Shown: positions 2,695-55,670, counted from the first letter of the stretch. The stretch: 64,000 bases of DNA from Candidatus Aerophobetes bacterium Ae_b3a (GCA_005223095.1 NJBQ01000001.1:8408-72407); one strand, 5' to 3'. Notes: a model not told the origin generated them from the letters alone. Numbers and translations are program-made.

Positions 2695-4050
2695 ATGAAG
2701 GAAGAACCTAAGAGAATAGTGCGGTTTCCTGAGAATTTCGTTTGGGGTGCAGCAACGGCTTCCTATCAGATTGAGGGGGCTTACAATGAAGATGGTAAGG
2801 GAGAGTCTATCTGGGACAGATTCAGTAGGACTCCCGCTAAAGTGAAAGATGGTGATAAAGGAGGCGTAGCCTGTGATTTTTACCATCGCTACCAGGATGA
2901 TATTAAATTGATGAAGGCAATCTCTCTTAATGCCTACCGATTTTCTATCGCCTGGTCGCGTATCTTTCCTCAGGGAAAAGGACAGATAAATCAACGCGGT
3001 CTCGATTTTTATGAGCGAGTGGTAGATGAACTCCTTAGTAGCGGCATAGAACCATTTGTCACTCTTTATCATTGGGACCTACCCCAGGCTCTGCAAGAAA
3101 AAGGAGGTTGGGCAAATAGAGACACTATAGGCTATTTCAAAGACTATGCGGAAGAAGTTTCCAAAAAGCTGGGTGATCGTGTCCGCTTTTGGATTACCCA
3201 TAATGAGCCCTGGGTAGTCTCCTTTCTTGGCCATCACTTAGGAATCCATGCCCCGGGAATAAAGAATCTTTCTACAGCTCTCAAAGTCTCCCATCATCTA
3301 CTTCTGTCTCATGCAGAAACAGTAGCCGTTATAAGAGATAATGGTGATGAGAAAACCCAGGTAGGAATTACTCTTAACCTTTCTTCAGTGCATCCAGCCT
3401 CAGAAAGTGAAGAGGATAAGAAGGCAGCAAAGAGATATGATGGCTATCTTAATCGATGGTTTCTAGAGCCTATCTATAAAGGGTCTTATCCTGAGGACAT
3501 GCTCGCTCTATATGGTGATGAAGTCCCTGAAATTCAAGCTCAGGACTTAGAGCGCATATCAACAAAAATAGATTTCCTGGGAGTTAACTATTATACCCGA
3601 ACTGTGGTTAAGGCAGATAAGAAAGAAGCATTTTTAGGCCTCAGCTCAGTTAAGCCTACCGGTGCCGAATATACAGAAATGGACTGGGAGATTTATCCAC
3701 CTGGGATTTACGAGATTTTGAAACGTGTTCACAATGACTATGATGCTCCTGTTATTTACATAACGGAAAATGGGGTTGCCTTTCCTGACAAAATAGACAA
3801 AAATGGTCGGGTGAATGATGAATCACGCATTGAATATCTTAAGGGCCATTTTCTCCAGGCAAACAGAGCAATTGAGGATGGTGTTAAACTTTTTGGGTAT
3901 TTTGTCTGGTCCCTCTTAGATAACTTCGAATGGGCCTACGGATATTCCAAGCGATTTGGTCTTATTTACACGGATTATCCTACTCAGAAGCGGATAATCA
4001 AAGCTAGCGGCTGGTGGTATAGAAAAGTGATAGAGGAGAATGGAGTATAG
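2695..4050 (+). CDS. GH1 family beta-glucosidase
   Basis: N-terminal FVWGAATASYQIEGA, the NEP acid/base region (ITHNEPW) and the ITENG nucleophile motif (YITENGVAF) are hallmark GH1 signatures. 451 aa. Confidence 0.9.
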   Translation: MKEEPKRIVRFPENFVWGAATASYQIEGAYNEDGKGESIWDRFSRTPAKVKDGDKGGVACDFYHRYQDDIKLMKAISLNAYRFSIAWSRIFPQGKGQINQRGLDFYERVVDELLSSGIEPFVTLYHWDLPQALQEKGGWANRDTIGYFKDYAEEVSKKLGDRVRFWITHNEPWVVSFLGHHLGIHAPGIKNLSTALKVSHHLLLSHAETVAVIRDNGDEKTQVGITLNLSSVHPASESEEDKKAAKRYDGYLNRWFLEPIYKGSYPEDMLALYGDEVPEIQAQDLERISTKIDFLGVNYYTRTVVKADKKEAFLGLSSVKPTGAEYTEMDWEIYPPGIYEILKRVHNDYDAPVIYITENGVAFPDKIDKNGRVNDESRIEYLKGHFLQANRAIEDGVKLFGYFVWSLLDNFEWAYGYSKRFGLIYTDYPTQKRIIKASGWWYRKVIEENGV

Positions 4051-5181: not shown

Positions 5182-7520
5182 AAATAAAGGGATTTTCAAT
5201 AACAAGATACGGTCCTCTGTCTAAGATGGAGCAAATTTCACTGGGCAATTTCAACCTATTCTTTGGCAGGAACGAGGAGGGAAAAACACTAACCATAGAT
5301 GCTTTGGTGAAGATGCTCTTGAGAAAAAACATCAGAGATTTTATCCATATTAATCGAGTAGAAGAGAATCCAGAAGGTTATGTAATCATAGAAAATGAGG
5401 AAAAAGAGGAAGTCAAATTACCCGAAAAAGGGGATTTAACAAAATTGGCTGACCTCACTTCTTCAGAATGCCGTAATATTTTTATCATAAGAAATAGTGA
5501 CCTTTCTATTGCCGCCGAGAGTGAGTTTTATACCAATGTAACCGATCGCCTCACTGGTTTAAAAACAAGACAGATTCTCTCTATAAAGAATAAGCTGCAG
5601 GAATTGGGGAAATTAACCCGAGCAGATAGCACTGCCTCCCTTTCTAATAAGAAAGAATTTGGGAAAATAAAATCTCGTCTTGATAGGGCTGCTGGACTTA
5701 TTGAAAAGACAAGCACTTTAGAAGATGAGGTTAAAGAAGAGGGCTTCGACAGACTGGAAGAGGAGTCTATACGGGTGAAGGAAGAGAAAGACAAAATCAG
5801 GGAAAAAATAGAAGAATTTGAAGAAGCGGGTAAAAGAGAAAAATATGAAAAGGGAAAAGAAGCCCTGAAGGCTCTTAAGCGAGCTTTTAGAAAGAGTAAG
5901 GATTTGGAAGTTTATAACCAGGAGGATAGCCAGTTGTGGAGAGATAATGAGAGAGACATCAAGGCTAATGAAAAAGAAAAAGAGCAGCTTTTAGTTGAGC
6001 TTGATAAAAAGGAGAAGAAATTTCAAAAGACATCTGAAAATTTGAAGCAAAGAGAGCAACAGTTCCATATTTTCAAGGAAAGAAAGAAGGAACTGGATAA
6101 TGAGGTTAAACCAGAGATAAAAAATTATCAGACAAAGAAGGGAGAGTTGGTGCTTAAGGAGACAAAGAATAAATTCCTTACTTTTCTAATGACAGTTTCT
6201 GTAATATTATTGGGGGTCTCTTTGCTGGGAATTATTATTAGACCCGGCTTACTTTTCTATCTATTAGCTATCTTATTTTCAATTTCATTTGTGGTTTCAA
6301 GTATATTTAAACTCCAATTAAAGAAAGAGAAAGGCTCGCTGGCACAATTGTTTGAGAGAATTAAACTAAATCTTTCACGATTTGCTCTAAGGACAAACGA
6401 TATAGAAGGAGTTCTTTTTCATATTCAAAAGTTTGAGGACCAATACGGCAAAAAGGCTGGTGAATTAGAGGAGGTCAGAGGAGAGAAAAAGTTATTACAA
6501 AGCGAGATGGAAAAATTAAAACAAGAGAGAATTACAGAGATAGAAGATAGGATAAAGAGTGCTTACAGAAAAATAGAGGATGTGAAGATAAAGACAAGAG
6601 AGGAATCGCTCCCAAAATATAGCCAAAAACTGAGACTAAAACTGAAGTGTGAGAAGTTAGTCAGGGAGCAGGAAAGCTTTTTGAAAGCTCTTTTAGGAGA
6701 AAAGGGTGAGAGTTTAGAAGAAAACATTTCCCATTGGGATGAAGAGCTCAAAGAGCTGGAGGAGTATAAAGATAGAGCCAGGCATATGAAGTATAATGAG
6801 AAGAGTATTGCAGGATTAAAAGAGAAAGGAAAATTACTTGAGGAGGAGTCGAGGAAAATAGAGAGCACGATGGAGAAGTTCCAGAAGGAATTGGCAGAAA
6901 TAGAAAGAAGAGTGAATGAGATTCTAGGAGGAGAGCTAGAAGAAGATTACTTATATTGCAAGACCTCGGTGGACTTAGAGGCGATTGAAAATAAATTGCA
7001 GGAATCTATAGATGAAAATGAGACTAATAAGGATAATGTTCTTGAAGTTATGAAAATTTTTGAGAAAATAGAAAAGGAGGAAAAGGAGAAAGTCTCTCAG
7101 CTTTTTGGTGAGGAGAGCTCTGTCTCACAGCATTTTAAGGAAATAACCGATGGTCTTTACCAGAAGGTGGTCTTTCAGCAAGAAAGAGGAAAAATCAAGG
7201 TAGAGCGCAAAGATGGATTGATTCTGGATGCAGAAAAGCTATCCGGTGGTGCCTATGACCAATTATACCTTTCTATTCGACTTGCTCTGGGGGAAAAGCT
7301 CTTAAAGAAAAAGAAGGGATTCTTTATTATGGACGACCCTTTTATAAAGGCCAGTCCTGATAGATTAAAAAGACAGATGAAAATGCTGAAGAGAATCTCC
7401 AGTTCGGGATGGCAGATTATCTATTTTACTGCAAAAGGAGAAGTGAAGGAGGCTTTAAAAGAGGATATAGACAGCAGAATGGTTAATTATGTTGAGGTAA
7501 AAAGTTCTCTGAAATTATAG
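5178..7520 (+). CDS. Rad50/SbcC-like ABC-type ATPase with a long coiled coil and a central two-helix membrane hairpin (YhaN/AAA_27-like)
   Basis: N-terminal Walker A FFGRNEEGKTLT, C-terminal signature LSGGAYDQLYLSIRLAL and Walker B-like FFIMDDPF. About 450 aa of K/E-rich heptad sequence in between. The hydrophobic stretch FLTFLMTVSVILLGVSLLGIIIRPGLLFYLLAILFSISFVVSSIF (nt ~6177-6315) interrupts the coiled coil where a Rad50 zinc hook would sit. Confidence 0.65.
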   Translation: MKIKGFSITRYGPLSKMEQISLGNFNLFFGRNEEGKTLTIDALVKMLLRKNIRDFIHINRVEENPEGYVIIENEEKEEVKLPEKGDLTKLADLTSSECRNIFIIRNSDLSIAAESEFYTNVTDRLTGLKTRQILSIKNKLQELGKLTRADSTASLSNKKEFGKIKSRLDRAAGLIEKTSTLEDEVKEEGFDRLEEESIRVKEEKDKIREKIEEFEEAGKREKYEKGKEALKALKRAFRKSKDLEVYNQEDSQLWRDNERDIKANEKEKEQLLVELDKKEKKFQKTSENLKQREQQFHIFKERKKELDNEVKPEIKNYQTKKGELVLKETKNKFLTFLMTVSVILLGVSLLGIIIRPGLLFYLLAILFSISFVVSSIFKLQLKKEKGSLAQLFERIKLNLSRFALRTNDIEGVLFHIQKFEDQYGKKAGELEEVRGEKKLLQSEMEKLKQERITEIEDRIKSAYRKIEDVKIKTREESLPKYSQKLRLKLKCEKLVREQESFLKALLGEKGESLEENISHWDEELKELEEYKDRARHMKYNEKSIAGLKEKGKLLEEESRKIESTMEKFQKELAEIERRVNEILGGELEEDYLYCKTSVDLEAIENKLQESIDENETNKDNVLEVMKIFEKIEKEEKEKVSQLFGEESSVSQHFKEITDGLYQKVVFQQERGKIKVERKDGLILDAEKLSGGAYDQLYLSIRLALGEKLLKKKKGFFIMDDPFIKASPDRLKRQMKMLKRISSSGWQIIYFTAKGEVKEALKEDIDSRMVNYVEVKSSLKL

Positions 7521-12130: not shown

Positions 12131-12509
12131 AATTGTCCTTTTTCAAGACATTTCAGTGGGAAAAATAGGGCTTCGCCGATTCCTTGGGAATTTCAGTCCT
12201 CAACAGCCCAATTGGCAAAGCCGACTCTCGCTCCGCTTGCGCTCGCAATAGCTGAATATTTATCTAATGGCATTTCCCTAGTCATAACTTAAGCCAAATT
12301 TCACCTCTTGTCAATCTGATTTGGAGGTGGACATTCCCCAGGATTTGAGAGGTGTTCTCCCGAGAGTCTGAATTGAAGGGGCATTCTAATCAAGAAATAT
12401 TCTGAGGTCTAAGGATTCTCTGAATATTTGCCGATAATAACAAATAAGAAAGAGTTTCCTTATTCTCGATTGTCCGCAGCATTTCTTCTTATTTTGCTTC
12501 GACAGAATC

Positions 12510-12884
12510 ATTAGTTGAGAGAGATTATTTAGCCTACACCAAACTTGACAAGCATACCTATTTGTCTTATACTACCAAATGATGAAGATAGACAAAGGTG
12601 AGCTTCTAGAGAAGCTAAGTCAGACAAATTTATGGCAAAACTTGTCTGCAGAAGAGGTTAGAGTATATCTGCTTCTCATAATCTGTGCTGATGAAATAAG
12701 TGGAAGGTTCTGATTTTAGTGAAGACTCAGGATATACCCTAATGAAATTTCTTCTGGGTAGAAGCAATCTTCCTACAGCAGGTGACAGTTTATAACTTGA
12801 GTTAAGAAGACGGATAATTTAGGGGTTAAGGAGCTAAAAATGAGGCCGGAGGGAGGTGAGAAGTAGGTAGACCATTAGCTGGGG
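12510..12884 (+). promoter_or_regulatory. conserved promoter-plus-leader element, copy A: TTGACA(12544-12549)-17-TATACT(12567-12572), then a ~300-nt conserved 5' leader for the downstream family-5 SBP operon
   Basis: Near-identical to the reverse complement of 47929-48312, which occupies the same position relative to the second SBP gene. Contains the dyad AGCTTCT-AG-AGAAGCT, the hairpin CAGACAA-N14-TTGTCTG and a purine-rich GGAGGGAGGTGAGAAG block. Confidence 0.6.
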
Positions 12885-12978
12885 CAAAGCTTTGTAAAAG
12901 GGAAGCGTTAAATAATTGAATTTCCTTTTTGTAAGCTTTCAGGGAAAAATGAACTAGGTCAAAAAGGAGGAATATCCA

Positions 12979-14886
12979 ATGAAGAAAAGTTGGCTACTGG
13001 TGAGTTTTATCGTAGGCCTTAGTGTGGTTCTTCTGTCAAGCGTGGCGGCGTTCTCACAGCTTCCGCCGGGCATACCGCGACATGAAACGGTGATGATAGA
13101 TCAAATTTTTAGATACAGCGTTACTAATAACTTCAACCTCTGGACGCCAGGAGCAGGATCTACACCCACCAGACAGGGACTTGTATGCGATACCCTGTGG
13201 TATATAGACCAACAGACGGGTGAGTGGATCAACGCTTTAGCCAAAGAGCCACCCATTTACAGTGAGGATTTTACCAAAATGAGTGTGAAACTGAGGAAAG
13301 GAATCTACTGGAGCGACGGAGTCGAGTTCACGGCCGACGATGTTGTATTTACGGTTAAGAATCTAACCAGTCATCCTGCGATGATGTGGGGCACCGAACT
13401 CGAGCTCTATGTTGAGGATGTTCATAAGGTCGACGATTATACAGTTGTTTTTGAATTGACGAAGCCTTACTCGAGGTTTCACAATGTTTTCACTGCCCGG
13501 TATTACGCCGTCTACATCATGCCAAAACATATCTGGGAGAAAGTAGAAAAGCCTATGGAATTTACCTTTTATCCTCCTGTCTCTTTAGGCCCCTATATTC
13601 TGAAGGATGCAGATTCAGCAGGATACTGGGAACTTTTTGAAAGGAGAGAGGACTGGGAGAGAACAAGCGTTGGAAAAGTTACTGGCATGCCACCAGCACC
13701 AAAATATTTCCTGACTATTTTCTACGGTCCCAGTGAGAAGAAGGTTATGGCTATGTCAAAGCACGAGCTGGACTTGTTTATGAATGTCGATTATGAAGCT
13801 TTCAAGAGTCTCCTGGAAAAAGACTCCTATGCTCGTTCCTGGTACAAGGATTACCCGTGGGCATGGCCTGATGAACTTGATGGCAGACGGTTCGGCTTTA
13901 ACCTTGAGAAATTCCCCTACCATATAAAGGATGTTAGGTGGGCTTTGGCACTGGCCCTGGATATAGTAGATCTACAAACAGAATACCTCGGTGGAGTAAC
14001 TAGAGTTACTCCGATTCCCCAACCTGCAACTCCGTTCCACATGAAAAACTACCACAAGCCTCTGGAACCGTGGCTCAGGGAGTTCAAGATTGAGGCTGAG
14101 GAAGGCGTCTATTTCAAGCCCTACGATGAGACTGTGCCATATCAGATTGCCGAGTGGGCTAAAAAACAAGGATACTCAGTACCCAGCGAACCAGAAGATA
14201 TGAAAGATATGTTTGGTGTTGGATGGTGGAAGCACGCTCCCGACGTATCGGAGAAGCTACTCAAGAAGCATGGCTTCAAGAGGAATGCGCAAGGCAAATG
14301 GTTGCTTCCAGATGGTACTCTCTGGAAATTCAAAATTATAGCTGCACCCGATGAGGTAGATGTCTTTCGACTCGCACTTGGCGCTGTTGACCAGTGGAGA
14401 GAGTTCGGGATAGAGGTAGAGGTTTCGACACTGGAAAGGGATCCTTATTATACCTCTAACTCTCTGGGAGACTTCACTTGTACCTCTGCTTGGGGTGGTG
14501 CTTATACCGCTACGGCCGTACTGGATAAATGGCCGTTCATATACAGCTTCCATTCCAAGTTTTATAGACCAACTGGAGAGAGGTCGGTTTCGACTTTTAC
14601 CAATAGCGAGAGAATAAAATCTGAAGAACTTGACCGACTCATAGATGAGATGGAAAAGTTTCCTCCTAACGATCCGAAAACTCCGGAGCTGGTGAAGGAG
14701 TTTATGAAATTGTGGGTCGAGAATATGTGGTCGATCTGTACCGTTAGCTTCAAGAAATTCGTCACCCAAGATGAGTACTACTGGACTCACTTTCCCACCG
14801 CTGATGATCCATACGGGCAACCCTGCTACTGGTTCATGGGAGGTAGGTTCATACTCCCGCATCTTAAGGCTACGGGAAGAAAGTAG
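12979..14886 (+). CDS. ABC transporter substrate-binding protein, family 5 (DppA/OppA-type), secreted
   Basis: Signal peptide MKKSWLLVSFIVGLSVVLLSSVAAFSQ. 635 aa with family-5 SBP architecture. AGGAGG RBS. Confidence 0.85.
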   Translation: MKKSWLLVSFIVGLSVVLLSSVAAFSQLPPGIPRHETVMIDQIFRYSVTNNFNLWTPGAGSTPTRQGLVCDTLWYIDQQTGEWINALAKEPPIYSEDFTKMSVKLRKGIYWSDGVEFTADDVVFTVKNLTSHPAMMWGTELELYVEDVHKVDDYTVVFELTKPYSRFHNVFTARYYAVYIMPKHIWEKVEKPMEFTFYPPVSLGPYILKDADSAGYWELFERREDWERTSVGKVTGMPPAPKYFLTIFYGPSEKKVMAMSKHELDLFMNVDYEAFKSLLEKDSYARSWYKDYPWAWPDELDGRRFGFNLEKFPYHIKDVRWALALALDIVDLQTEYLGGVTRVTPIPQPATPFHMKNYHKPLEPWLREFKIEAEEGVYFKPYDETVPYQIAEWAKKQGYSVPSEPEDMKDMFGVGWWKHAPDVSEKLLKKHGFKRNAQGKWLLPDGTLWKFKIIAAPDEVDVFRLALGAVDQWREFGIEVEVSTLERDPYYTSNSLGDFTCTSAWGGAYTATAVLDKWPFIYSFHSKFYRPTGERSVSTFTNSERIKSEELDRLIDEMEKFPPNDPKTPELVKEFMKLWVENMWSICTVSFKKFVTQDEYYWTHFPTADDPYGQPCYWFMGGRFILPHLKATGRK

Positions 14887-18947: not shown

Positions 18948-21743
18948 GTGACCTTGCAAGAGAGGAAAGGTGAAAAAACGGTAGGGGGTGTCACAGACCT
19001 ACTCTGTGAATATACCCTGAATCCAGTGGGGATTGATGTAGGCTTGCCTCGGTTTTCCTGGGTACTCAATCATTGGGAACGCGGACAGCTTCAGTCAGCC
19101 TACCAGGTGCTTGTTGCCCGCAAGCGGGAATATTTAGACACCGATAACGGTGATATGTGGGACAGCGGTAAAGCAACCTCAGGGGAGTCAGTAAATGTTC
19201 CATATGCAGGTACTCTTCTAGAGAGTAGAAAAATGTATTACTGGAAGGTACGTGTGTGGGATAAAGATGGAAAGGTAAGTCCCTGGAGTAAGACAGCTAC
19301 ATTTGAGATGGGCCTTTTGAAACCGGATGACTGGGAAGGAAAATGGATTAAGGGAGGAAATCTCCTCCGTAAGGAATTTACTGTTGGTAAGGATATTGAG
19401 CAGGCACGGGCATACATATGTGGATTAGGTTACTACGAGTTGCGCATTAATGGAGAAAAAGTTGGCGACCATGTTCTTGATCCAGGCTGGACAGATTACG
19501 AAAAGAGAGCATTGTATGTTACCTATGATCTGATTAACTATCTTAAAGGGAACGAAAACGCAGTAGGTGTTATGCTAGGTAATGGACGTTATAGCCCACC
19601 AGGCAAGGTATCTAATAAAAGCCTAACGCCCCCACTAAAAAAGTATGGCCACTCACCGGTGCTGATATTACAGATACATATACATTTCACTGATGGCTCC
19701 AGCATAAGGGTTGTAACTGATGAGACTTGGAAAACTGTCCAGGGTCCTATTGTCAGGGATGACATTTATGATGGCGAGACGTATGATGCCAGACTTGAGA
19801 GAGAAGGTTGGGACGCGCCGAACTTTGATGATGCTAATTGGAATTCTGCCACCGTCGTGGATGCCCCTGGTGGAAAGTTAGTCTCCCAGGCGAGCTTTCC
19901 GCCAATTAAGGTGGTAAAAATATTGCAACCTAAGAAAATTACCAATTCAAAGCCGAATGTTTATGTCTATGACTTCGGACAGAATTTCACTGGCTGGGTG
20001 AGGCTCCGTGTGCGTGGTCCAAGAAGCACTCAGATACAACTGAGATATGCTGAATTATTAGATGAGAACGGCATGATTAACACTATACCTAATCGTGGGG
20101 CAAAAGCAACCGATACCTATATCCTGAAAGGAGAAGGAGAAGAAATATACGAGCCACGCTTTACCTACCATGGCTTTCGCTATGTCGAGGCAACTGGTTT
20201 TCCTGGCACACCAATCCTGGAGAGTTTAGAAGGAGGTGTAGTCCACTCAGCGGTAGAGCCTGTTGGTGGCTTTACCTGCTCTAATTCTTTGATCAACAAG
20301 ATTCACCAGAATATCCTCTGGGGACAACTGAGCAATCTCATGAGTATTCCCACCGACTGTCCACAGCGCGATGAGCGCATGGGATGGATGGGTGATGCTC
20401 AACTTGTTGTGGAAGAAGCAATTTACAACTTTGATATGGTCGGCTTTTTTGGGAAATGGACTGGTGATATAGAGGATGCTCAAAAAGAGGACGGCAGCGT
20501 GCCAGATGTTGTGCCACCTTATTGGAGCATTTACCCTGCTGATCCTGTTTGGGGCACAGCTTGCGTGACCATTCCCTGGCATCTATATCTCTATTATGAG
20601 GATAAACACATTCTGGAGCAAAACTATTCTCTTATGAAGAAGTGGGTAGATTTTTTAGGCGCGCAGGCAACTGATTATATTATTACCTATGGTAAATATG
20701 GAGATTGGTGCCCTCCCCGGCATGCTCGTCCAGTGGATACTGCGCTCATACTAACCTCAACCTGGTATTACTTTCATGATGTTATGGTCTTGTCTAAGAT
20801 TGCCCGTATTTTGGGCAACCACGAGGATGCAGAAAAGTATGTCCAGCTCTCTGACAAGATTAAGGAGGCCTTCAACAGGGAGTTTCTACGGGAGGGCTTC
20901 TATTGTGGCGAAAAATATACTGACTTGTATAAGAGGGTGGAAGCTCTTCTACCTGCGGGAACTCCTGAGGATAAGAAAGGGGAAATGATTAAGAAAACGC
21001 TCCCATTATTTGCCCCCAGCGGCCAGACCTCCAATGTGCTCCCTCTTTTCCTGAATATGGTGCCTGAAAACAAGAAAGAGGATGTGTTTGAGAATCTGGT
21101 GCATGATATTGTGGCAACACAGAGCAGTCACCTTAACACAGGGATTGTAGGCACCAAGTATATATTTGATATCTTAACAAAATTTGGACGCACAGATCTT
21201 GCCTATAAGCTAGCAACGCAAACCACCTATCCCAGCTGGGGCTATATGATCAAGGAAGGCGCGACAACCATATGGGAAAGATGGGAATACCTTGCTGATG
21301 TTGGCATGAACTCACACAATCATATAATGTTTGGCACCGTGGATGCCTGGTTCTACAAGGTGTTGGCCGGCATCAGCCTTGATCCTGCTGGCCCTGGTTT
21401 TCAGCGAATCATCATCAAACCCCACCCCGTCGGCGACCTCAAATATGCCAGTGCCTCACTTAAGACCATTAGAGGCATACTATCCTCAAGTTGGACCAGA
21501 CAGGATAGGTCGCTAGTATTAAATATCACTTTGCCTGTCAATTCTCAGGGGAAGGTGAGCATTCCAAAAATGAAGCTGGAAAATGTCGTAATCAAGGAAG
21601 GTAAAACGATAATCTGGGAAAATGGCATATACTTTGAAGGCACAGCGGGTATCACCGTTGGAAGAGAGAATGATGAATGTGTCACATTCGATGTAGGATC
21701 GGGGTCCTACTCTTTTAATTTAACGGGAACTCCCCCTCTGTAA
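18948..21743 (+). CDS. GH78 alpha-L-rhamnosidase
   Basis: GTG start with AGGGAGGAG RBS. N-terminus LLCEYTLNPVGIDVGLPRFSWVL...QSAYQVLVA is the canonical start of bacterial alpha-L-rhamnosidases. 931 aa with the (alpha/alpha)6 catalytic region (MGWMGDAQL...). Confidence 0.85.
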   Translation: MTLQERKGEKTVGGVTDLLCEYTLNPVGIDVGLPRFSWVLNHWERGQLQSAYQVLVARKREYLDTDNGDMWDSGKATSGESVNVPYAGTLLESRKMYYWKVRVWDKDGKVSPWSKTATFEMGLLKPDDWEGKWIKGGNLLRKEFTVGKDIEQARAYICGLGYYELRINGEKVGDHVLDPGWTDYEKRALYVTYDLINYLKGNENAVGVMLGNGRYSPPGKVSNKSLTPPLKKYGHSPVLILQIHIHFTDGSSIRVVTDETWKTVQGPIVRDDIYDGETYDARLEREGWDAPNFDDANWNSATVVDAPGGKLVSQASFPPIKVVKILQPKKITNSKPNVYVYDFGQNFTGWVRLRVRGPRSTQIQLRYAELLDENGMINTIPNRGAKATDTYILKGEGEEIYEPRFTYHGFRYVEATGFPGTPILESLEGGVVHSAVEPVGGFTCSNSLINKIHQNILWGQLSNLMSIPTDCPQRDERMGWMGDAQLVVEEAIYNFDMVGFFGKWTGDIEDAQKEDGSVPDVVPPYWSIYPADPVWGTACVTIPWHLYLYYEDKHILEQNYSLMKKWVDFLGAQATDYIITYGKYGDWCPPRHARPVDTALILTSTWYYFHDVMVLSKIARILGNHEDAEKYVQLSDKIKEAFNREFLREGFYCGEKYTDLYKRVEALLPAGTPEDKKGEMIKKTLPLFAPSGQTSNVLPLFLNMVPENKKEDVFENLVHDIVATQSSHLNTGIVGTKYIFDILTKFGRTDLAYKLATQTTYPSWGYMIKEGATTIWERWEYLADVGMNSHNHIMFGTVDAWFYKVLAGISLDPAGPGFQRIIIKPHPVGDLKYASASLKTIRGILSSSWTRQDRSLVLNITLPVNSQGKVSIPKMKLENVVIKEGKTIIWENGIYFEGTAGITVGRENDECVTFDVGSGSYSFNLTGTPPL

Positions 21744-40112: not shown

Positions 40113-41435
40113 CTACCAAAAATGTTTAAATTGAGGCAGTTGGTTTTTGTTTGCCTCAAACATCTCCTTTACCATCTTCTCTATTTCGGCCAGGCTTAAA
40201 ACAGCAGAGGTTAAAGGATCAAAACAGATTGAATGAAATATCATTCTCGGATCACCACTAATAGCACCATCCACTGCCAGCTCTTCGCATCTAGCACTGA
40301 TATTATTGAGAATAGCCAGTTGTGGCGGTAGCGAACCTACATGAATAGGACTAAATCCACGCTTGGAGGTAATTACTGGCACTTCAACACAGCAGCCTTC
40401 TGGAAGATTATCTATAAGACCAAAGTTTCTCACATTTCCATTAAATTCATACAGGGTTCCATCTCCAATTGTGGCATTGAAAATGTTTGCTGCATACTCT
40501 TTGCCTCTTTTTAGGTCTATTGATGGTTCTTCAAGCCATTTCTTTATTTCAGATTTCCAGGTATGCTCTCTTTTCAGGTATTCTTTCAGGATAAAGGCAT
40601 ATTCTCCCGGATTCCAGCCAGTACTATGCCTGCAATATTTCTCTATCAGGTCAGCTCTTTTTCTAAACCAGGCATTGTATTCCGAGTTATGGCCACTGGA
40701 TTCCGTAGCATAATAATCCAGATGGAGAAACATCTCATTTCTTACCTGCTCTTCATTGTAAATCTCAGGTCTCTTAACAGCTTCTTTAATAAGAGGGTAG
40801 ACATCTTTACCATTCCTTTTGAACTCCAGAAACCAAGCCTGATGATTTATCCCGGCACAAAGATAGGTAATCTCTTCCATAGGAGCACCTATCCACTTGG
40901 CCAGCATCTCGGCTGTACCCTGGACGCTGTGGCAAAGACCGGTTACTTTGACTTTGCTCTCACTTTGCATGGCACGACAAAGCATAGCCATAGGGTTTGT
41001 ATAGTTTAGGAAAATAGCCTCAGGGCAGTAATGCTCTATGTCTTTACATATGTCAAGCATTACTGGTATTGTTCTCAAGGCCCTGAAAATTCCAGCCGGG
41101 CCCCTGGTATCGCCAACATTTATATCCACTCCATACTTTTTGGGGATTTCTATATCTGACCGCCATACCTGAACCCCGCCCACAAGGATGGTGCAAACCA
41201 CTCCATCTGCTCCCTTGAGCGCCTCAACTCTATCTTTGGTAGCAAGCACCTTTGCTGGGTAATTTCCCGCAGCGATTATTTTCTCTATTGCTTTTTTCGC
41301 GAAGAAAAGGCGTTCCTCATTGATATCCATAAGCGCTACCGTACTGCCCTCAAGTGCGGGGAAAGTGAGAATATCCCTCACCAATCTTCTGGTGAATTCA
41401 AAGCTCCCTGCTCCTATAAAAGCAATTTTTGGCAT
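40113..41435 (-). CDS. GH4 family NAD+/Mn2+-dependent glycosidase (alpha-glucosidase/alpha-galactosidase type)
   Basis: [18 protein letters not shown] (Rossmann GAGS start), the CHSV region ([10 protein letters not shown]), and ~440 aa, typical of GH4. Confidence 0.85.
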
Positions 41436-41463: not shown

Positions 41464-42462
41464 TTAAGCGTAGAGCCAACATTTGACCTGATGTCCTTTT
41501 TCTACTTCAATTACGGGAGGTTCCTCTTCAGATTGACAAATTTTTTTAATCTCCAAGCATCGGGGAGCGAAAAGGCAACCCCGGAGAATGGATAAAGGAT
41601 CAGGAACTGTTCCCTTAATCATGGCCAGTCTTTCTCCCTTTCCTACAATAGAGGGTATAGATTTTAATAAGGCCTGTAGATAAGGGTGCATGGGATGGTG
41701 GAAGAGGTCGTGAGCACTGGCGTATTCCATAATTTTTCCTAAATACATTACCGCTACATTATCGGATGTCTCGGCGATAACTCCCAGGTTGTGAGTTATC
41801 ATCATAATAGCCATACCAAATTCTTGTTGAAGCTCTTTCATTAGCTCTAATACCTGGGCCTGGACAGTTACGTCTAAAGCGGTAGTAGGCTCATCAGCGA
41901 TAAGAAGATTAGGATGGCAGGAAAGAGCCATAGCGATTATAGCCCTCTGACGCATACCCCCGCTCAGTTGATGAGGATAATCATCGACCCTTTGAGCCGG
42001 ATCAGAGATTCCTACCCGATCCAGCATCTTGATAGCGTGCTCTTTAGCCTCCTTCTTGGTTACCTTTTGATGGACCATGATGGATTCAATTATTTGATCT
42101 CCGATGGTATAGACCGGATTCAGGGAAATCATGGGTTCCTGAAAGATCATGGCTATTTCTCCCCCTCTAATGTTCCTCATCTTGCTTCCCCTTGAATCTA
42201 ACCGGATAAGATCTACACTTTTTTCTTTATTTTCCCCATATAATATCTCTCCCCGGGTTATCCTTCCTGGAGGTGCAGGAATCAATCGCATAATGGAAAG
42301 AGCGGTAACGCTTTTTCCACAGCCGCTTTCGCCTACTACGCCTAAGGTCTCACCCCGACGTATCTTTAAATTAACCCCATCTACTGCTTTGACAATCCCA
42401 TCATCAGTATAGAAATAGGTGCACAACCCTTTTACATTGATTAAACAAGAATTGGTCTCCAA
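41464..42462 (-). CDS. ABC transporter ATP-binding protein (Dpp/Opp D/F family)
   Basis: Walker A GESGCGKS, signature LSGGMRQR, Walker [13 protein letters not shown]. Oligopeptide-type C-terminal extension. Confidence 0.9.
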
Positions 42463-42526: not shown

Positions 42527-43549
42527 CTAAAATTGTCTTATTCCTTTTAAGGAAAAATCATCAGCAAAATGACAGGCTACATAATGCTCATCGCCGATAT
42601 CCTCCAGAGGAGGTTCCTCTTGACTACAGATCTTTTTAGCATATCGGCATCTGGGATGGAAAGTGCATCCGGAGGGAGAATTCGCCGGGTTAGGGACATC
42701 CCCTTGCAGAAGAATACGTTCTGGTTTAACATCTGGATCAATGACGGGAACAGCGGACATTAAGGCTTCAGTATAAGGATGCCTCGGTCCTTGGTAAACC
42801 TCCTCCGCTTGGCCCACCTCCATTATCTTTCCCACATACATTACCGCTATGCGGTTGCTAATATGATACACTACGCTCAGGTCATGGGCAATAAAAAGGT
42901 AGGTCAGGTTAAATTGCACCTGGAGGTTCTCCAGCAGGTTAATTACCTGAGCCTGGACTGACACATCAAGAGCTGAAACAGGCTCATCAGCGATAACTAA
43001 TCGGGGATTTAATGCTAAGGCTCGGGCAATTCCTATTCTCTGTCTTTGTCCACCACTGAACTCATGAGGATACCTTCTCATATATCTGGGATTTAGCCCC
43101 ACTATCTTCAAGAGTGTTCTAACCCTGTCCTCTATCTCCTTTCCCTGGGCCACCTTATGGATTATCAAGGGCTCACCCACTATATCCATAACTGTCATTC
43201 GAGGATTTAAAGAAGCATAGGGGTCCTGAAAGATCATCCTCATCTCTCTTCTCAGGCTCTTTATCTCCCTGTCTTCTAATTTGGTTATATCTAATTTTTT
43301 CCCTTTGCCCGTCTTAAACCAGACCTCTCCATCTGTAGGCTCTATCAACCTCAGGATGCTTCTTCCAAGCGTGGTTTTCCCACAGCCACTTTCTCCCACC
43401 AGCCCAAGAGTTTCCCCCTGGCGAATAAAAAGATCAACTCTATCAACTGCCTTGACGTAGCCTACAACTCGTCGAAAGACTCCCCTGGTTATGGGAAAGT
43501 ATTTCTTGAGATTTTTTACCTCAAGCAATATCTCGTTCTGCTTGTCCAC
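42527..43549 (-). CDS. ABC transporter ATP-binding protein (Dpp/Opp D/F family)
   Basis: Walker [10 protein letters not shown], signature FSGGQRQR, Walker [13 protein letters not shown]. Confidence 0.9.
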
Positions 43550-45790: not shown

Positions 45791-47851
45791 TTATTTCTCC
45801 TCATAGGTTGGAATTACCCCCGGGAGAAGTTCAGGCTTTTGCTCCTCCTTGGGAACCCAAAGCTGCCATGCACATTGAGCCACATCGAACCATTCATACA
45901 TGTAAGGTGGAGTACCGGGTGGAACGTTCCTCAGTCTATTGGCAATTGCATTACCCACCTGCATCTTATAGAGGCCAATCGTGTAAACGTTTTCAGTCCA
46001 TAAATTTTGAATTTCTGAGAATGTTTCCCTTACCTTTGAACCAGATCTCTCAGTTTTTAGTGAGTTTATCAGATCTCTTAAGCGAGCCTCAAAGGGAAAT
46101 AGGTCTCTTTCCCCCCCTGGTCCAGCCTGGTGCCAGGTAGGAGTAATCTCGGTTACAGGCCCAAGGTCGGTTAATCTTGTCAGGGGAGTAAGACACAACA
46201 CATTATCACGATATATAGGTATCTCAAGTTCTCCACTGTCGGATAGAGCATCGTAAGTTGTGGTCTTGATGACTTTAAGAACAGACTTAATACCAGCTTC
46301 CCTAAGGTAGGGAACTAAGGCCTCTCCTAAGTTCACGGCTGCGGTTTCGTCTTCAACGATATGGATTACAAGGGTTAAATCCTGACCAGCTAATGGAGTA
46401 CCTGTAGCCCACTCCATTATACCATCGCCATCGATGTCCTTAAATCCCAGCTCTGCAAACAAACCTTTTGATTTTTCCAGATCATAAGCATAGGTGACGA
46501 TAGCATCGGGATCATAATATGGAGAAGAGTCAACCAGACTACCTTCATACGGTGCAATTAGAGGTCCTGGGAAAATTGAGTTTGTTATTCCCTCCCGGTT
46601 AATGGCGTAGGATAAAGCTTTTCTAAACCTGGGATCTCTGAATAACTCTCTCATGGCTCGGTCTCTCTCCGTCTTCACCCCTTTGTAAAGTGAAAAATTT
46701 GGCTGCAAACTAAACGAAGCGTTATAACCCACAAATCGAGCCACAAAGTAGGAGTCTGACCTCCGTGCTTCTTCCAGGGCAAAAGAGAAAACCCCCGGTG
46801 TTTCTAGGTTGGTATAATCAATACTTCCGGCTATCACATTTAAGGTTCTGGTTATCCCTCTTCTTCCCTTTTCAATATAAGCCTCGTTAAAATAGGGAAG
46901 TTGTTGTCCTTTCTCATCCACCTTCCAGTAGTAAGGATTTCTCCTGGCCACTATGAATCTTGCCGGTTCGAATTTTACTGGCACCCAAGGACCGAGCGTT
47001 ACCACCGGAAGATCCTCAGGAGGTAGGGAATGAATGAAGCCTTCGTAAGTAGCATCTGGATTGTATTTTGGATGATGCTTTGCTAGAACATGCTTGGGAA
47101 CTGGTGCCAAACCGTAGCGGCCCATGCGGAAAAGAATGTATAGAGGGAAGCCTGCCCCAAAACGCCACCTGATGGTATACTTATCTACCTTTTCCAGTTC
47201 GGTTAATTTTCCGTTTATTGTCCATGCGCCCGCGCCGAGGAAGGAAGGAATATGGGAATCTAAATGGCAGTCGTAATATGTAAACAGGACATCATCAGCC
47301 GTGAATTCCACTCCATCCGACCACTTTGCTCCTTCAAGCAGATGCATGGTAAGGGTCTTGCCATCTTCGGACCATTCCCAACTGGTAGCTAAGTTTGGTA
47401 CAGGTTCAATGGGATTTTTTAGCATCCACATATGGGCGGGTTCCACCAGGCCTTCCCAGACAAGCACCTCGGTGCCCCACCAACCTGATGTTAATCCTGC
47501 TGCCCAGTTCCAGCCCGCGGTTGGAGACCCACAAAAGACCCTCCACTTATCACCATATACCCCTAGGCCGTCACTCATAACCTTAGACTTTATAACCTGG
47601 GGGTTCTTGGGCAATCTCTCCCACACTGGGGGAAGTTCCCCTTTGGCCACTGCCAACTCTAATGCCTCAGGTTCGATATAGTTCGGGAGGGCCTTGTACT
47701 CCATAATGTCACTGATTTCGAACTTGCCTAAAAAGCTCTCCTGAGCGATAGCCACTGCACTAAACGAGGCGATGAACATAAGCGCTATTAATATTGGCAT
47801 AACTCTCTTCATCTTAACCTCCGGAAAAACATATTTTCTTGCGTCATACAT
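45791..47851 (-). CDS. ABC transporter substrate-binding protein, family 5 (DppA/OppA-type), secreted
   Basis: Signal peptide MKRVMPILIALMFIASFSAVAIA. 686 aa. Paralogous to the SBP at 12979 but strongly diverged at the protein level. Confidence 0.85.
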   Translation of the reverse strand: MYDARKYVFPEVKMKRVMPILIALMFIASFSAVAIAQESFLGKFEISDIMEYKALPNYIEPEALELAVAKGELPPVWERLPKNPQVIKSKVMSDGLGVYGDKWRVFCGSPTAGWNWAAGLTSGWWGTEVLVWEGLVEPAHMWMLKNPIEPVPNLATSWEWSEDGKTLTMHLLEGAKWSDGVEFTADDVLFTYYDCHLDSHIPSFLGAGAWTINGKLTELEKVDKYTIRWRFGAGFPLYILFRMGRYGLAPVPKHVLAKHHPKYNPDATYEGFIHSLPPEDLPVVTLGPWVPVKFEPARFIVARRNPYYWKVDEKGQQLPYFNEAYIEKGRRGITRTLNVIAGSIDYTNLETPGVFSFALEEARRSDSYFVARFVGYNASFSLQPNFSLYKGVKTERDRAMRELFRDPRFRKALSYAINREGITNSIFPGPLIAPYEGSLVDSSPYYDPDAIVTYAYDLEKSKGLFAELGFKDIDGDGIMEWATGTPLAGQDLTLVIHIVEDETAAVNLGEALVPYLREAGIKSVLKVIKTTTYDALSDSGELEIPIYRDNVLCLTPLTRLTDLGPVTEITPTWHQAGPGGERDLFPFEARLRDLINSLKTERSGSKVRETFSEIQNLWTENVYTIGLYKMQVGNAIANRLRNVPPGTPPYMYEWFDVAQCAWQLWVPKEEQKPELLPGVIPTYEEK

Positions 47852-47928
47852 TACTCATTTTTCTGTGGAAAGCCCTAAAAACTAGAGAAAGGAATAGATC
47901 CTTCAACATTTCTCTTTTTAGATGCTTT

Positions 47929-48312
47929 CCTCATACCCCAGCTAACGACTTACTTGCTTCTCACCTCCCTCTGGCCTTATTTTTAGCTCTTTAACCCTTA
48001 AATTATCCGTCTTCTTAACTCAAGTTATAAACTGTCTCCTGCGGGAGGTCGAGCCGTCCAGTCTCTCATTATAAGCTTTTCCCCCAGCAGCACCTTTTTT
48101 GGCGTCCCTCTATCCTTCCACTTATTTCATCAGCGCAGATTATGAGAAGCAGATATACTCTAACCTCTTCTGCAGACAAGTTTTGCCATAAATTTGTCTG
48201 ACTTAGCTTCTCTAGAAGCTCACCTTTGTCTATCTTCATCACTTAACAGTATAAGATAAATAGGTATGCTTGTCAAGTCTCGTGTAGGCTAAATAATCTC
48301 TCTCAACTAATT
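47929..48312 (-). promoter_or_regulatory. conserved promoter-plus-leader element, copy B (minus orientation): -35 TTGACA at 48276-48271, 17-nt spacer, -10 TATACT at 48253-48248, then a ~300-nt conserved leader
   Basis: Reverse complement aligns with 12510-12884 at roughly 95% identity in two blocks, separated by a ~75-nt non-homologous central segment. Confidence 0.6.
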
Positions 48313-48454
48313 CCTAACCTTGCCCCCTCCCAGTTTTTAGTATTCCTCTATAAACCCACCTTTAAGAAGCTTTTCCAAGTAAGAGTTCTTCCTTTTTCAG
48401 CAATCTCTTATAGCGAGATTTCAAAAACTGGGGGGCGGCAAGGTAACAGGGGGG

Positions 48455-49177: not shown

Positions 49178-50458
49178 ATGATTAAGAAATGTGTTCATAT
49201 TGGGGTTATGGTATTAGTATTGACAGGACTGCTTTTTGGCATATCGAACTCCGCATTAGCACAGGAAAAGGTTACCTTAAGAACAATAGGAGGCCCAGAT
49301 CCTCATGGCTATGAGGCTGCCGAGGATAATTTGTTTGAGAAGGTTTCTCCCTGGATCAAAGTGGAAAGAACTACCGTTCCCTATGGAAGAGAGCAACGTC
49401 TGAAACTCATTGCTTCTTTCCGCAGTGCCAGACCGTATGACATGTACATAATTGACTGTGTGGAAGTTTCTGAGTATGCCAATGCTGGCTGGGCTTTGGA
49501 TGTAACAGAGCGGGTCACTCCAGAGATGAAAGAAGGTATTCTCCCATTTGCAGCAGACGGAATGATGTATCAGGGTCGCTGGTATGGTCTGCCTTGGATA
49601 TCTGAATGGAAGTCCTTTGTATATAATGCCCGTATGCTTAAAGAGGCTGGTTTTACAGGCCCTCCAAAGACATGGGATGAATTTGTGGAACAGAGCAAAA
49701 GACTACAGGCGGCTGGAATCGTCGAGAGATACGCAACGGCTTGGTCCTGGGCTCAAAAGGAGTGTTTGATTTGCGATTCTGTAGCGATTATGGCCAGCTT
49801 CGGTGGACAATTCTTTGATGAGGACCTTAATCCTGTGTTTAATAGTCAGGCAGGAGCGGAAGCTTTGCAGTGGATGATAGACTCTATGTACAAGCACAAA
49901 ATCTCTGATCAGGCGTCTCTTACCTTTACTGAGTCAGATGTAGATGCCCTTATGGAGGGAGGAAAAATTGCTTTCGAACTAAGATGGGGACTACCTCTGG
50001 TTATCCTCAACGATCCTAAGGCATCCAAGGTGGTGGATGAATGTAAGATAGGCCTGTTCCCGGCAAAAACTCTTGCTACCTACCCCGGCTACACTGTCTC
50101 TGGACCTATGGGGTGGAGCATCGCTCTTGATTCTCCACATAAAAACGAAGCTTGGGAATACGTGGAGTTTAGGGCTGGATTTGTAGGGGCAAAGAGAAAT
50201 GCTATCAAATACGGTGTATTTCCTGGTTGGATTTCTCTATATGAAGACCCTTCTGTAACCGATGCTATTCCTGGGCTAGATGTAATGCTAGAGTCTGGAA
50301 AACAGGTTGTGAACAGGCCGCGAGTCCCCTGGTATTACAAATTTTCTGATGCTCTCCAGTTGGAGTTACACAAAGCCATGACTCGGGCTAAAAGTCCGGA
50401 AAATGCACTTGACGATGCAGTAACTGAAACTCTAAAGATAAAGAGAGAGGCGGAATAG
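49178..50458 (+). CDS. ABC transporter substrate-binding protein, family 1 (sugar-binding), secreted
   Basis: Signal peptide MIKKCVHIGVMVLVLTGLLFGISNSALAQEK. 426 aa, typical size and composition for MalE/UgpB-type sugar binders. AAGGAG RBS. Confidence 0.8.
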   Translation: MIKKCVHIGVMVLVLTGLLFGISNSALAQEKVTLRTIGGPDPHGYEAAEDNLFEKVSPWIKVERTTVPYGREQRLKLIASFRSARPYDMYIIDCVEVSEYANAGWALDVTERVTPEMKEGILPFAADGMMYQGRWYGLPWISEWKSFVYNARMLKEAGFTGPPKTWDEFVEQSKRLQAAGIVERYATAWSWAQKECLICDSVAIMASFGGQFFDEDLNPVFNSQAGAEALQWMIDSMYKHKISDQASLTFTESDVDALMEGGKIAFELRWGLPLVILNDPKASKVVDECKIGLFPAKTLATYPGYTVSGPMGWSIALDSPHKNEAWEYVEFRAGFVGAKRNAIKYGVFPGWISLYEDPSVTDAIPGLDVMLESGKQVVNRPRVPWYYKFSDALQLELHKAMTRAKSPENALDDAVTETLKIKREAE

Positions 50459-50512
50459 GAATAGGAAGGGGTCCCGCTCTACAGGGGCCCCTTCTTTCTT
50501 AAAATCGTATAA

Positions 50513-51385
50513 ATGCAAAAAAAACAAATCGGTATTCTTCTCTGCCTACCTAGTTTTATAATAATCTTCTTTGTGCTGGGTTATCCTTTAGGTTATTCAA
50601 TTTACATAAGCTTTCTGAAAATGAACATTGCCTCATCCCTTCGCGGACCGGAATTTGTCGGCCTGACAAATTATGTGAATGCTTTATACGATATTAAACT
50701 GTGGGCAGCTATCGGTCGCACAGCATACATCACTGTTTGGGATGTGCTTGTAGGTACCAGTCTAGGTTTGCTTATGGCTCTTCTTCTCAATACAATGCTT
50801 AAGGGGCGAGGGATCCTTCGGGCAATTGTTCTCTTCCCCTTTATACTTCCCCCCGTGGTTAACGGACTGATTTGGAAGTGGGTATATAATCCAAACTACG
50901 GGTTTCTAAACGGCTTTTTGTATCAAATTGGAATAATTCGCAACTATCAGTCCTGGCTCTCCCAACCTTGGACTGCCCTGCATATGATCATTTTGGCAAA
51001 CCTGTGGCAGGGAACTGCTTTTGCTTATATCCTTTATCTAGGGGGTCTACAGTCCATCCCTCTTCAACTCTACGACGCAGCAAAAATAGACGGAGCCTCT
51101 CGCTACCAGACATTAATCCGGATTACTCTTCCGCTGCTTCTGCCTATCACTCTCGTCATTGTGGTTCTTAAAACTATCCTCACTTTTAAACTGTTTGATC
51201 TTATCTACGTTCTTACGGGAGGAGGACCGGCCAATTCCACTCAGGTAATTACTTATTATATTTACAAGAAAAGCTTTGACTTTCTGGAATTTGGAGGAGC
51301 AGCTGCGCTCTCCTATATTTTGACCTTACTCCTTCTTGTCTTCGTGTATGTTTACTATAAGCTTTTACAAAAAGACGTATATTGA
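50513..51385 (+). CDS. carbohydrate ABC transporter permease (MalF/UgpA-type)
   Basis: 290 aa with six TM segments and the EAA loop region (AAKIDGASRYQTLIRITLPLL). Confidence 0.85.
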   Translation: MQKKQIGILLCLPSFIIIFFVLGYPLGYSIYISFLKMNIASSLRGPEFVGLTNYVNALYDIKLWAAIGRTAYITVWDVLVGTSLGLLMALLLNTMLKGRGILRAIVLFPFILPPVVNGLIWKWVYNPNYGFLNGFLYQIGIIRNYQSWLSQPWTALHMIILANLWQGTAFAYILYLGGLQSIPLQLYDAAKIDGASRYQTLIRITLPLLLPITLVIVVLKTILTFKLFDLIYVLTGGGPANSTQVITYYIYKKSFDFLEFGGAAALSYILTLLLLVFVYVYYKLLQKDVY

Positions 51386-51403
51386 GATTTTAAAAGGCGC
51401 ATC

Positions 51404-52249
51404 GTGAGCAAAAAATCTTTTAGATACATAATTTTTGTAGGTGTGGTCTTTCTTCTTTTGTGGACTCTTGCTCCCCTTTACGTAGTTTTCATATCCAGTA
51501 TTACTCCTGACAAAGATCTGCTAAATGTGCCTCCTAAGTGGATTCCCACGCCAGATTTGAGTAATTATGCCTACGCACTCACGAGTGGAGAAGAGGGAGG
51601 GACAGCTTGGCTGTTTAGAAAAAGTCTTGTAAACAGTTTCATAGTTGCAGCCGGTGTAACTGTGTTTTGTCTGTTTATAGGAGGACTTGCTGGATACGCT
51701 TTCTCCAGATTTGCTCTGCCTTTCAAGGATAAACTTTTATTTTTGGTTCTTTTCACCCAAATGCTCCCGGTAATTACGGTAGTTATTCCCCTTTATTTGA
51801 TTTTTTCTACCTTTCGTATGTTGGACAGACTCATTACTCTGGTCATTGTCTACTCTTCCTTCACTCTCCCTTTGGTTATCTGGCTGCTGAAAGGATTTTT
51901 TGATACTATTCCCGCTGATTTAGAGGAGGCGGCAATGGTTGATGGCTCCACCTTATTAGGAGCCTTCTTTAGAATAGTAGTTCCCCTCTCTATACCAGGT
52001 GTGATTGCCACGGGGGGCCTGGCCTTTCTGGCAGCTTGGAATGAGTTTATGATTGTCCTTGTGTTCACTAGCACCGCAGCCTCTAAGACGATGCCTGTAG
52101 CAATAGCTGAGTTCATAGGAAGATTCAGGGTGGACTATGGACTTATGTGTTCAGTAGGGATAATTGCTTCTCTTCTTCCTGTGGCCCTTGCCCTTGTGTT
52201 CCAGAAATACTTAGTTCAGGGTCTATCAGCCGGGGGAGTAAAAGGCTGA
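51404..52249 (+). CDS. carbohydrate ABC transporter permease (MalG/UgpE-type)
   Basis: 281 aa. EAA motif region EEAAMVDGSTLLGAFFRIVVPLS. Confidence 0.85.
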   Translation: MSKKSFRYIIFVGVVFLLLWTLAPLYVVFISSITPDKDLLNVPPKWIPTPDLSNYAYALTSGEEGGTAWLFRKSLVNSFIVAAGVTVFCLFIGGLAGYAFSRFALPFKDKLLFLVLFTQMLPVITVVIPLYLIFSTFRMLDRLITLVIVYSSFTLPLVIWLLKGFFDTIPADLEEAAMVDGSTLLGAFFRIVVPLSIPGVIATGGLAFLAAWNEFMIVLVFTSTAASKTMPVAIAEFIGRFRVDYGLMCSVGIIASLLPVALALVFQKYLVQGLSAGGVKG

Positions 52250-52393
52250 ATATATTTGTAATGGTCAATACTCCGCAGACAGAAAGGAGGCTCTAAAGGA
52301 AGTAGAATTTTTAATTCTTTCTATTGTTGTAGATCGAAAGAGAAGAAAGCATCGCAAGTATGCCAAAAGAAAATGAAAGGAGAAGGTTAAGAG

Positions 52394-53761: not shown

Positions 53762-54117
53762 TAACAAGGTTAAAAGGGATTATCACGTGTAGAAAAAAAT
53801 ACTACTTTTCAAAATGGAGACTAAGATTTCTGTTTCCCATCCAGGGAACATTAATTTTTTCCAAAGAGGAGACCCAATTCATTAGCATAGGATTAAATGA
53901 CCTTTTCTTAAATTCGATCCTGACTTCATCACCAGTTATTTCACCTGCAGCCCTACCCTCAACAAAGGCACGATAGGTGGTTTTGGCTTTGGAATTTTTA
54001 AATAGTTTGAATTTGCTTAATAGAATCTTATTCCAAGTTCGGTGAGTCTATCCAGGTTCTCATGAGTTGTCAATTTAGAATCAAAGACCAGATATTCGGG
54101 TAAGAGCTTTTTGTCAA

Positions 54118-55479: not shown

Positions 55480-55499
55480 CGTTTTTCTCCTTCAAGTGC

Positions 55500-55670
55500 C
55501 TCGGACAATTTTCTTCCGTCACCATTCTCGTATCTCGTTGTTCGTATCTCGTATCTAGTGTAACGTATTGCACTATGCTTTTTAAAGCCTTTTTTCGAGA
55601 TACGAGATACTAGATACGATTCACGTTTCTTCAAGGAATGTCCTTCGGCAAACGTATAAGTTCCTAATAC
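55500..55670 (+). repeat. composite intergenic repeat between hslV and hslU: TCACCATTC, CGTATCTCG units as an imperfect long inverted repeat, and a GGAATGTCCTTCGG module
   Basis: The arms CGTATCTCGTATCTAGTG and CGAGATACGAGATACTAGATACG flank a T-rich centre. GGAATGTCCTTCGG also occurs at 29803-29817. CGTATCTCG also occurs at 31673-31683. Confidence 0.5.

Follow-up and report, generated by a model that had tools for sequence, protein, structure and literature searches.

Two near-identical copies of a cassette (copy A and copy B) lie in opposite orientation upstream of two ABC transporter operons in the 64,000-nt stretch of DNA that we analysed (hereafter the window), which comes from Candidatus Aerophobetes bacterium Ae_b3a, a marine-sediment MAG. 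Our analysis indicates, with a probability that we put at about 0.85, that each copy is a composite scar, in which a captured promoter with a fragment of a small gene is followed by a differently deleted LacI-family pseudogene and then by a native spacer. That the two copies are so alike beside diverged genes most probably means that the cassette arose recently from one source, rather than that an RNA is under selection.

The repeat pair and the two operons

An inverted-repeat search of the 64-kb window confirmed the two near-identical inverted copies that the earlier note had placed upstream of two substrate-binding-protein (SBP) genes. The sole long inverted repeats in the window are the arms of block 1 (12510-12707 / 48114-48311; 198 nt, 96% complementary, 8 mismatches) and of block 2 (12772-12884 / 47936-48048; 113 nt, 13 mismatches, 88% and thus below the ~94% estimated earlier), and the ~65-75 nt that separate block 1 from block 2 do not align between copy A and copy B. 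Downstream, each copy faces a family-5 SBP gene (PF00496), and the two operons are delimited as follows:

12979..14886, + strand: SBP A, family 5, 635 aa, first gene of ABC operon A
18948-21743, + strand: GH78 rhamnosidase, last gene of operon A
45791..47812, - strand: SBP B, family 5, 673 aa, first gene of ABC operon B
40113-41435, - strand: GH4 glycosidase, last gene of operon B

SBP B has its longest ORF from 47851, but its true start is probably 47812, where the ATG follows a GGAGG ribosome-binding site and gives the 673-aa length of most cluster members. With SBP B starting there, block 2 is ~95 nt from the SBP start codon in copy A and ~124 nt in copy B, and the equal distances once assigned to the two copies no longer hold. 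The SBPs of the two operons are 34% identical over only 100 aa, the permeases 26-30% and the ATPases 37-40%, values that mark operons A and B as old, deeply diverged paralogs. Because of this divergence the repeat is not a leftover of a recent whole-operon duplication; a recent duplication of the whole operon or the whole region, which had already been discounted from the protein divergence, is out at 26-40% identity.

Two further repeats and insertions were seen around operon B. A 76-nt direct repeat (71% identity, 41828-41903 / 42921-42996) inside adjacent ABC ATPase genes of this operon is ordinary paralog similarity. Between hslU and cassette B lies a four-gene SBP1-type sugar operon (SBP_bac_1, two permeases and GH4; 49178-53761, +), which is absent from the same hslU-side interval in contigs L014 and L029, and this interval is therefore strain-variable.

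Copy A is fixed in the population. The stretch 12131-12978 is matched at 99.6-100% in six independent assemblies, which excludes copy A as an assembly artefact, and four other assemblies end at 12792, at the edge of block 2, as a repeat would predict. At locus A, the 10 contigs listed out of 23 with SBP A all carry the cassette or break inside it. The exact fused architecture of copy B was not recovered in any independent assembly.

Block 1 and its parent gene family

Block 1 consists of a promoter and codons 1-43 of a truncated small gene, with the following parts:

12499..12578, + strand: copy A upstream region with the native small-gene promoter; homology to L003 and L011 from 12499/12504
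12545-12550 (-35, TTGACA) and 12568-12573 (-10, TATACT), + strand: copy A promoter
12579..12713, + strand: copy A residual 44-aa ORF, with small-gene codons 1-43 to ~12704
48243..48400, - strand: copy B upstream region with promoter; L011 655-976 matches 48400-48117
48276-48271 (-35) and 48253-48248 (-10), - strand: copy B promoter
48069..48242, - strand: copy B residual 57-aa ORF, with the same 43 codons to ~48117

Compared with L003, the upstream region of copy B has a deletion inside it, and it reaches further upstream than that of copy A. In a promoter scan, TTGACA-17-TATACT scored 11/12 in both copies (12545-12573, +; 48276-48248, -), which bears out the earlier description of a textbook promoter in each copy as one of near-consensus sigma-70 type. 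The ORF start, MMKIDKGELLEKLSQTNLWQNLSAEEVRVYLLLIICADEISGR, comes directly after the -10 box in both copies. Beyond ~12704 the ORF of copy A continues out of frame through LacI-derived sequence to a stop, and past ~48117 that of copy B runs out of frame across a LacI C-terminal remnant. Positions 12574-12579 read ACCAAA in copy A, where copy B (48247-48242) and the small-gene family have GTTAAG; one change in this cluster between the -10 box and the start makes an upstream GTG an ATG, and the cluster may be a single multi-base event.

A protein search with the 43 residues matched just four short metagenomic ORFs, and a Pfam search with the 57-aa ORF gave no match. The parent gene was found on related contigs: L011 has a complete 93-aa gene (851-1132) that shares 89% nucleotide identity with block 1 over its 5' part, and L002 carries at 495-782 a homolog of the block 1 gene with 72% nucleotide identity and a frame open for ~95 aa. 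By tblastn, the full-length family protein matches copy A at 12582-12704, and the block 1 ORF matches the full-length family at 58.5% over 41 aa (E 4e-13). The family comprises 88 homologs of 93-107 aa from subsurface metagenomes, with further members at L005 6001-6279, L006 1685-2002 and L009 6001-6297, and a gene of the L011 type is a plausible donor of block 1.

Pairwise counts of the cassette ORF copies gave 14/12/10 differences at the three codon positions and a synonymous to nonsynonymous ratio of 6:27, against 92/59/137 differences at codon positions 1/2/3 and a ratio of 109:120 for the full-length family genes. Because these substitution patterns differ, we regard the family as a real coding gene and the cassette copies as decaying fragments. 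Neither window ORF (44 and 57 aa, with unrelated tails) has the ~93-107-aa length and the winged-helix core of a complete member.

In all family members the promoter has the form TTGACA-17-TAtAaT and ends 7-10 nt before the ATG, without a Shine-Dalgarno sequence; with the promoter so close to the ATG and no Shine-Dalgarno, the mRNA of the family is probably leaderless. The captured promoter is native to the small-gene family. The full-length small protein had no match in Pfam, NCBIfam or PHROGs, and none of the PDB sequences was significant (best E=0.06, uncharacterised proteins). Its AlphaFold model (pLDDT 86) has the topology H-H-H-b-H-H-b-b, and the top Foldseek matches are all winged-helix regulators, none of them at E<=0.001 (best 0.03, TM ~0.5), which weakly suggests a winged-helix-like fold. 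The core elements of the winged helix in the model lie beyond residue 45, and the cassettes retain the first three helices only.

Full-length members usually lie divergent from an HTH_3/31 gene, with Wzz/GNVR, GGDEF or type IV pilus genes following them. This genomic setting, at the head of polysaccharide or pilus clusters, is unrelated to sugar transport. In L011 and L002 the small gene is followed by a 98-aa ORF, that of L002 weakly resembling DUF6812, below the Pfam cut-off. L002 also has the C-terminal end of a PLDc_2 gene duplicated (892-1431 / 3090-3203) downstream of a second, truncated small-gene copy, and this duplication points to a local rearrangement in that contig.

The variable middle

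The segment between the two blocks is made of two different leftovers of one LacI-family repressor gene:

12700..12795, + strand: copy A LacI-family remnant, residues 224-250 plus the last four codons, GDSL, and TAA
48025..48117, - strand: copy B LacI-family remnant, residues 319-348 plus stop, 93.5% to L014 by tblastn

In copy A, residues 224-250 are encoded at 12700-12780, and GDSL with the TAA stop at 12781-12795. Copy A matches residues 224-250 of the L014 LacI-family protein at 96% (tblastn) and L014 2701-2782 at 98.8% nucleotide identity. In the alignments, the deletion of copy A lies between two GCAG microhomologies and that of copy B between two G[T/G]GGAAGG repeats; because the internal deletions in A and B differ, the middles do not align.

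L014, found by a metagenome scan with the block 2 pattern, holds an uninterrupted 348-aa LacI-family gene (LacI HTH plus Peripla_BP_1/3) in the order hslU, LacI-family gene, block 2 and SBP5 operon, and its hslU is 93.8% identical to window 54117-55520. L004 has, in this order, block 1, the copy A middle, ~200 nt more of LacI-family coding sequence, the copy B middle and block 2; its 125-aa ORF is a LacI-family C-terminal domain (PF13377, Peripla_BP_3, 9e-29) in one frame. No sequence encoding a LacI N-terminus or HTH was found in the window, whose copies are therefore remnants and not genes; the HTH occurs elsewhere, in L014 (PF00356, 3e-19) and as a fragment in L003. Like the full-length gene in related contigs, the remnant immediately precedes the SBP operon and has the same orientation.

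The fusion and its spread

The small gene meets the LacI-family gene at a junction, GATGAAATAAG joined to TGGAAGGTTC, that is identical in both window copies, L001 and L004; it reads GATGAAATAAG followed by TGGAAGG, and L003 differs by one base at the junction. The occurrence of the same junction in all the fused copies recovered argues for one origin, in a single fusion after which the copies suffered deletions independently. In L003 (731-2023) a truncated IS transposase on the minus strand (DUF772 / DDE_Tnp_1_6) comes after an N-terminal LacI fragment (HTH, 106 aa) and abuts the upstream region of block 1. The arrangement suggests that the foreign promoter fragment entered a LacI-family gene via an IS-associated rearrangement. 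The L003 transposase was not found in the window, and no transposase lies beside either copy.

Copy B sits in place, where L014 has its LacI-family gene in the hslU-to-SBP5 arrangement. For locus A, an ancestral LacI-family gene is hinted at only by L015, where such a gene lies near sequence resembling the glycosyltransferase side of this locus. The flanks outside the two cassettes are unrelated. L013, L014 and L015 share their LacI-family gene and block 2 at 94-99% identity. The LacI-family gene together with a spacer of ~110 nt, 87-99% identical, also stands before at least five transporter operons (three SBP5, one SBP1 and one 328-aa type), and this homology ends at differing points just before the binding-protein gene, a pattern suggestive of paralogs evolving in concert or of downstream operons being swapped. 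Near-identical LacI-family paralogs or swapped operons would make homology available for recombination, and we favour recombination between paralogous loci as the way in which the fused gene moved. A recently spread promoter cassette had been put forward earlier as a fallback; this much of it stands, that one fusion with the same junction occurs at two loci or more, and overall it is only partly right.

The following course of events would account for the two scars. A LacI-family repressor gene once stood before the SBP operon, until one illegitimate fusion, with which an IS fragment is associated in L003, brought small-gene codon 43 up against LacI-family codon 224. The fused structure then reached at least two loci, probably by recombination between near-identical LacI-family paralogs, and was shortened independently, copy A losing residues 251-344 at the GCAG microhomologies and copy B residues 224-318 at the GGAAGG repeats. 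With the repressor gone, the operons would no longer be under its control, and the captured promoter probably reads through a leader of ~400-430 nt into each of them. No intrinsic terminator was found between the promoter and the SBP gene in either copy, which together with the near-consensus promoter makes read-through into the operons likely; read-through and derepression are thus the probable, sequence-based expectation for both loci.

Block 2 and the distal element

The stop codon of the LacI-family gene is followed immediately by block 2, which is therefore the native spacer between repressor gene and SBP gene. Its parts, and the hairpin beyond it, are:

12796..12884, + strand: copy A block 2 proper, native LacI-SBP spacer; follows the LacI stop, L013/L014/L015, 87-98%
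47936..48024, - strand: copy B block 2 proper, native spacer
12832-12884, + strand: copy A distal sub-element, with AGCTAA, GGAGGGAGGTGAGAAG at 12848-12863 and TTAGCT at 12875-12880
47992-47936, - strand: copy B distal sub-element
12886..12939, + strand: copy A long imperfect hairpin/inverted repeat, from block 2 to the SBP ribosome-binding site
47868..47931, - strand: copy B long imperfect hairpin before the SBP B ribosome-binding site, z -2.55

The closest relative of block 2 is L014 for copy A and L003 for copy B. At 87-98% identity, the block 2 module stands ahead of five different binding-protein genes (SBP5-635; SBP5-673; SBP5-666, which is 52% identical to SBP B in amino acids; a family-1 SBP of 440 aa; and a sugar-type protein of 328 aa). 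Block 2 and the region ahead of the full-length LacI-family gene were searched for a LacI-type operator palindrome, with nothing convincing; the sole palindrome, 5+5 TAACT-TG-AGTTA, lies over the stop codon.

Distal block 2 (12832-12884) and the hairpin could be a genuine operon-proximal regulatory element, a reading that is compatible with a scar elsewhere in the cassette and that we consider possible, if rather unlikely. Such an element could be a promoter/operator region or a 5'-UTR structure acting on translation or mRNA stability. Upstream of operon B, L027 (605-661), L028 (169-225) and L029 (3858-3916), contigs reached via the SBP B cluster members P0110 and P0114, retain the distal ~57 nt of block 2 and the hairpin at 94-96%. 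None of the three has a LacI-family gene or proximal block 2 upstream of operon B (L029 has an RHH-type small gene), so it is the operon, not the regulator gene, that the distal part accompanies. Its persistence there, its presence at 87-98% ahead of the five binding-protein genes, and an SD-like GGAGGGAGGTGA after which no start codon follows are all in keeping with a regulatory role. The hairpin, found also at L013 ~5245-5300 (-), L012 ~2755-2815 (-) and L014 ~3170-3222, has arms that differ by locus and retains its palindromy and a loosely conserved centre, GYGTTRAA..ATT, with three pairs showing compensatory change.

Against this stand hairpin fold z-scores that range from -2.55 to +1.44, so that stability is not significant, and a consensus energy of -8.0 with a covariation term of -0.86 over about four independent versions. 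The AGCTAA/TTAGCT stem is broken in L012, and the hairpin is lost in L004, between AAGCTTT direct repeats. The distal purine-rich motif has no other copy in the window, the other ABC operons included, and the identity of the distal element equals that of the neighbouring LacI coding sequence, which recency alone can explain.

Other readings of the cassette

A more ambitious proposal takes the fusion of promoter and dead repressor as an adaptive "derepression module" that spreads by homologous recombination among near-identical LacI-family paralogs standing before many different sugar transporters, with distal block 2 and the hairpin as a shared 5'-UTR control element that all these operons keep. 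We judge this to be distinctly improbable; were it true, operon after operon would be constitutive and promoter-captured in an energy-starved sediment bacterium.

It is very unlikely that the cassette is a discrete mobile element, be it MITE-like or a transposon end with an outward promoter. The presence of the same fusion at two or more loci, the IS fragment (DUF772 / DDE_Tnp_1_6) that adjoins the cassette in L003 and the assemblies that break at the cassette edge would fit such an element, but its boundaries have neither terminal inverted repeats nor target-site duplications, and they differ between the copies, on the left (12499 vs 48400) as on the right (~12970 vs ~47936). Moreover, an uninterrupted LacI-family gene has the right part as its native spacer, and neither window copy has a transposase at its side.

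Between copies A and B the ORF fragment has 2/129 mismatches and block 2 has 13/113 (p=0.002). Mosaic ancestry accounts for this greater likeness of the ORF fragment, which could also mean some weak constraint. That the leaderless peptide of 44 or 57 aa has a function of its own, such as dominant-negative pairing with the full-length protein, is a still fainter prospect. The fragment is the best-conserved part between A and B, and promoter and start codon are kept in all copies; the changes in the cassette are mostly nonsynonymous (27:6) and flat across codon positions, however, the C-terminal tails differ and arise out of frame, and the fragment is without the predicted winged-helix core.

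The least credible reading is the one that the earlier note preferred, in which the complete ~380-nt leader acts as a structured cis-regulatory RNA, either riboswitch-like or binding a protein, and keeps its stem while the insert varies. High, seemingly non-coding conservation beside diverged genes invited it, and the hairpins it named and the purine-rich block bracketed by AGCTAA/TTAGCT are indeed present in the sequence. The leader is not of non-coding origin, however: block 1 and the middle are derived from coding sequence, the insert being LacI leftovers and block 1 a truncated gene, and the apparent architecture of stem and insert comes from deletions in a pseudogene. Rfam gave no match across the window at the gathering score, nor for both leader regions at E<=1 with permissive filters. 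The leaders fold no better than shuffles (z -0.41 for A, -1.08 for B), and the RNAalifold consensus of seven diverged block 1 homologs (-7.26 kcal/mol) has a covariation term of -0.1 and keeps neither of the named hairpins. Selection on the leader, proposed as the cause of its conservation, gives way to a recent common origin of the cassette.

We therefore return to the composite scar. The explanation is an ordinary one and opens no long-standing question. It removes a false riboswitch candidate and illustrates that independent deletions in a duplicated pseudogene can mimic a conserved leader with a variable insert. It further offers a clear and fully traceable case of regulatory rewiring in the uncultured phylum Aerophobetes, in which fusion to a strong foreign promoter destroyed the repressor of a sugar operon and the same event is found at two transporter loci at least. 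It also brings out a family of small proteins, as yet without a name, whose conserved promoter is so placed that translation would be leaderless.

Comparison with known systems

Like riboswitch leaders, the cassettes form a long 5' region with local hairpins before a transporter operon; unlike riboswitches and other Rfam leaders, they show no model match, covariation or excess stability, and coding remnants explain their sequence. The small protein is like the winged-helix factors (MarR/SarZ, the CodY C-terminal domain, ArsR/Fur-like) in predicted topology, but it has neither a significant fold match nor a sequence-family match to them. The middle resembles a decayed LacI/GalR repressor gene, with remnants that encode the C-terminal sugar-binding domain (Peripla_BP_3 / Peripla_BP_1) in the position of the full-length gene. 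It differs from an intact LacI/GalR repressor in that 31 (A) and 30 (B) of 348 codons survive and the HTH is gone, and from plain decay of such a gene in that a foreign promoter and gene fragment now stand in place of the 5' part. Compared with the outward or hybrid promoters of IS elements, the promoter here comes from a chromosomal small gene, 43 codons of which came along, and activation of the operons would follow from its placement. In other respects the cassette is like IS-associated promoter capture: a strong foreign sigma-70 promoter is aimed into the operon, a repressor gene is interrupted, and an IS fragment adjoins the cassette in L003.
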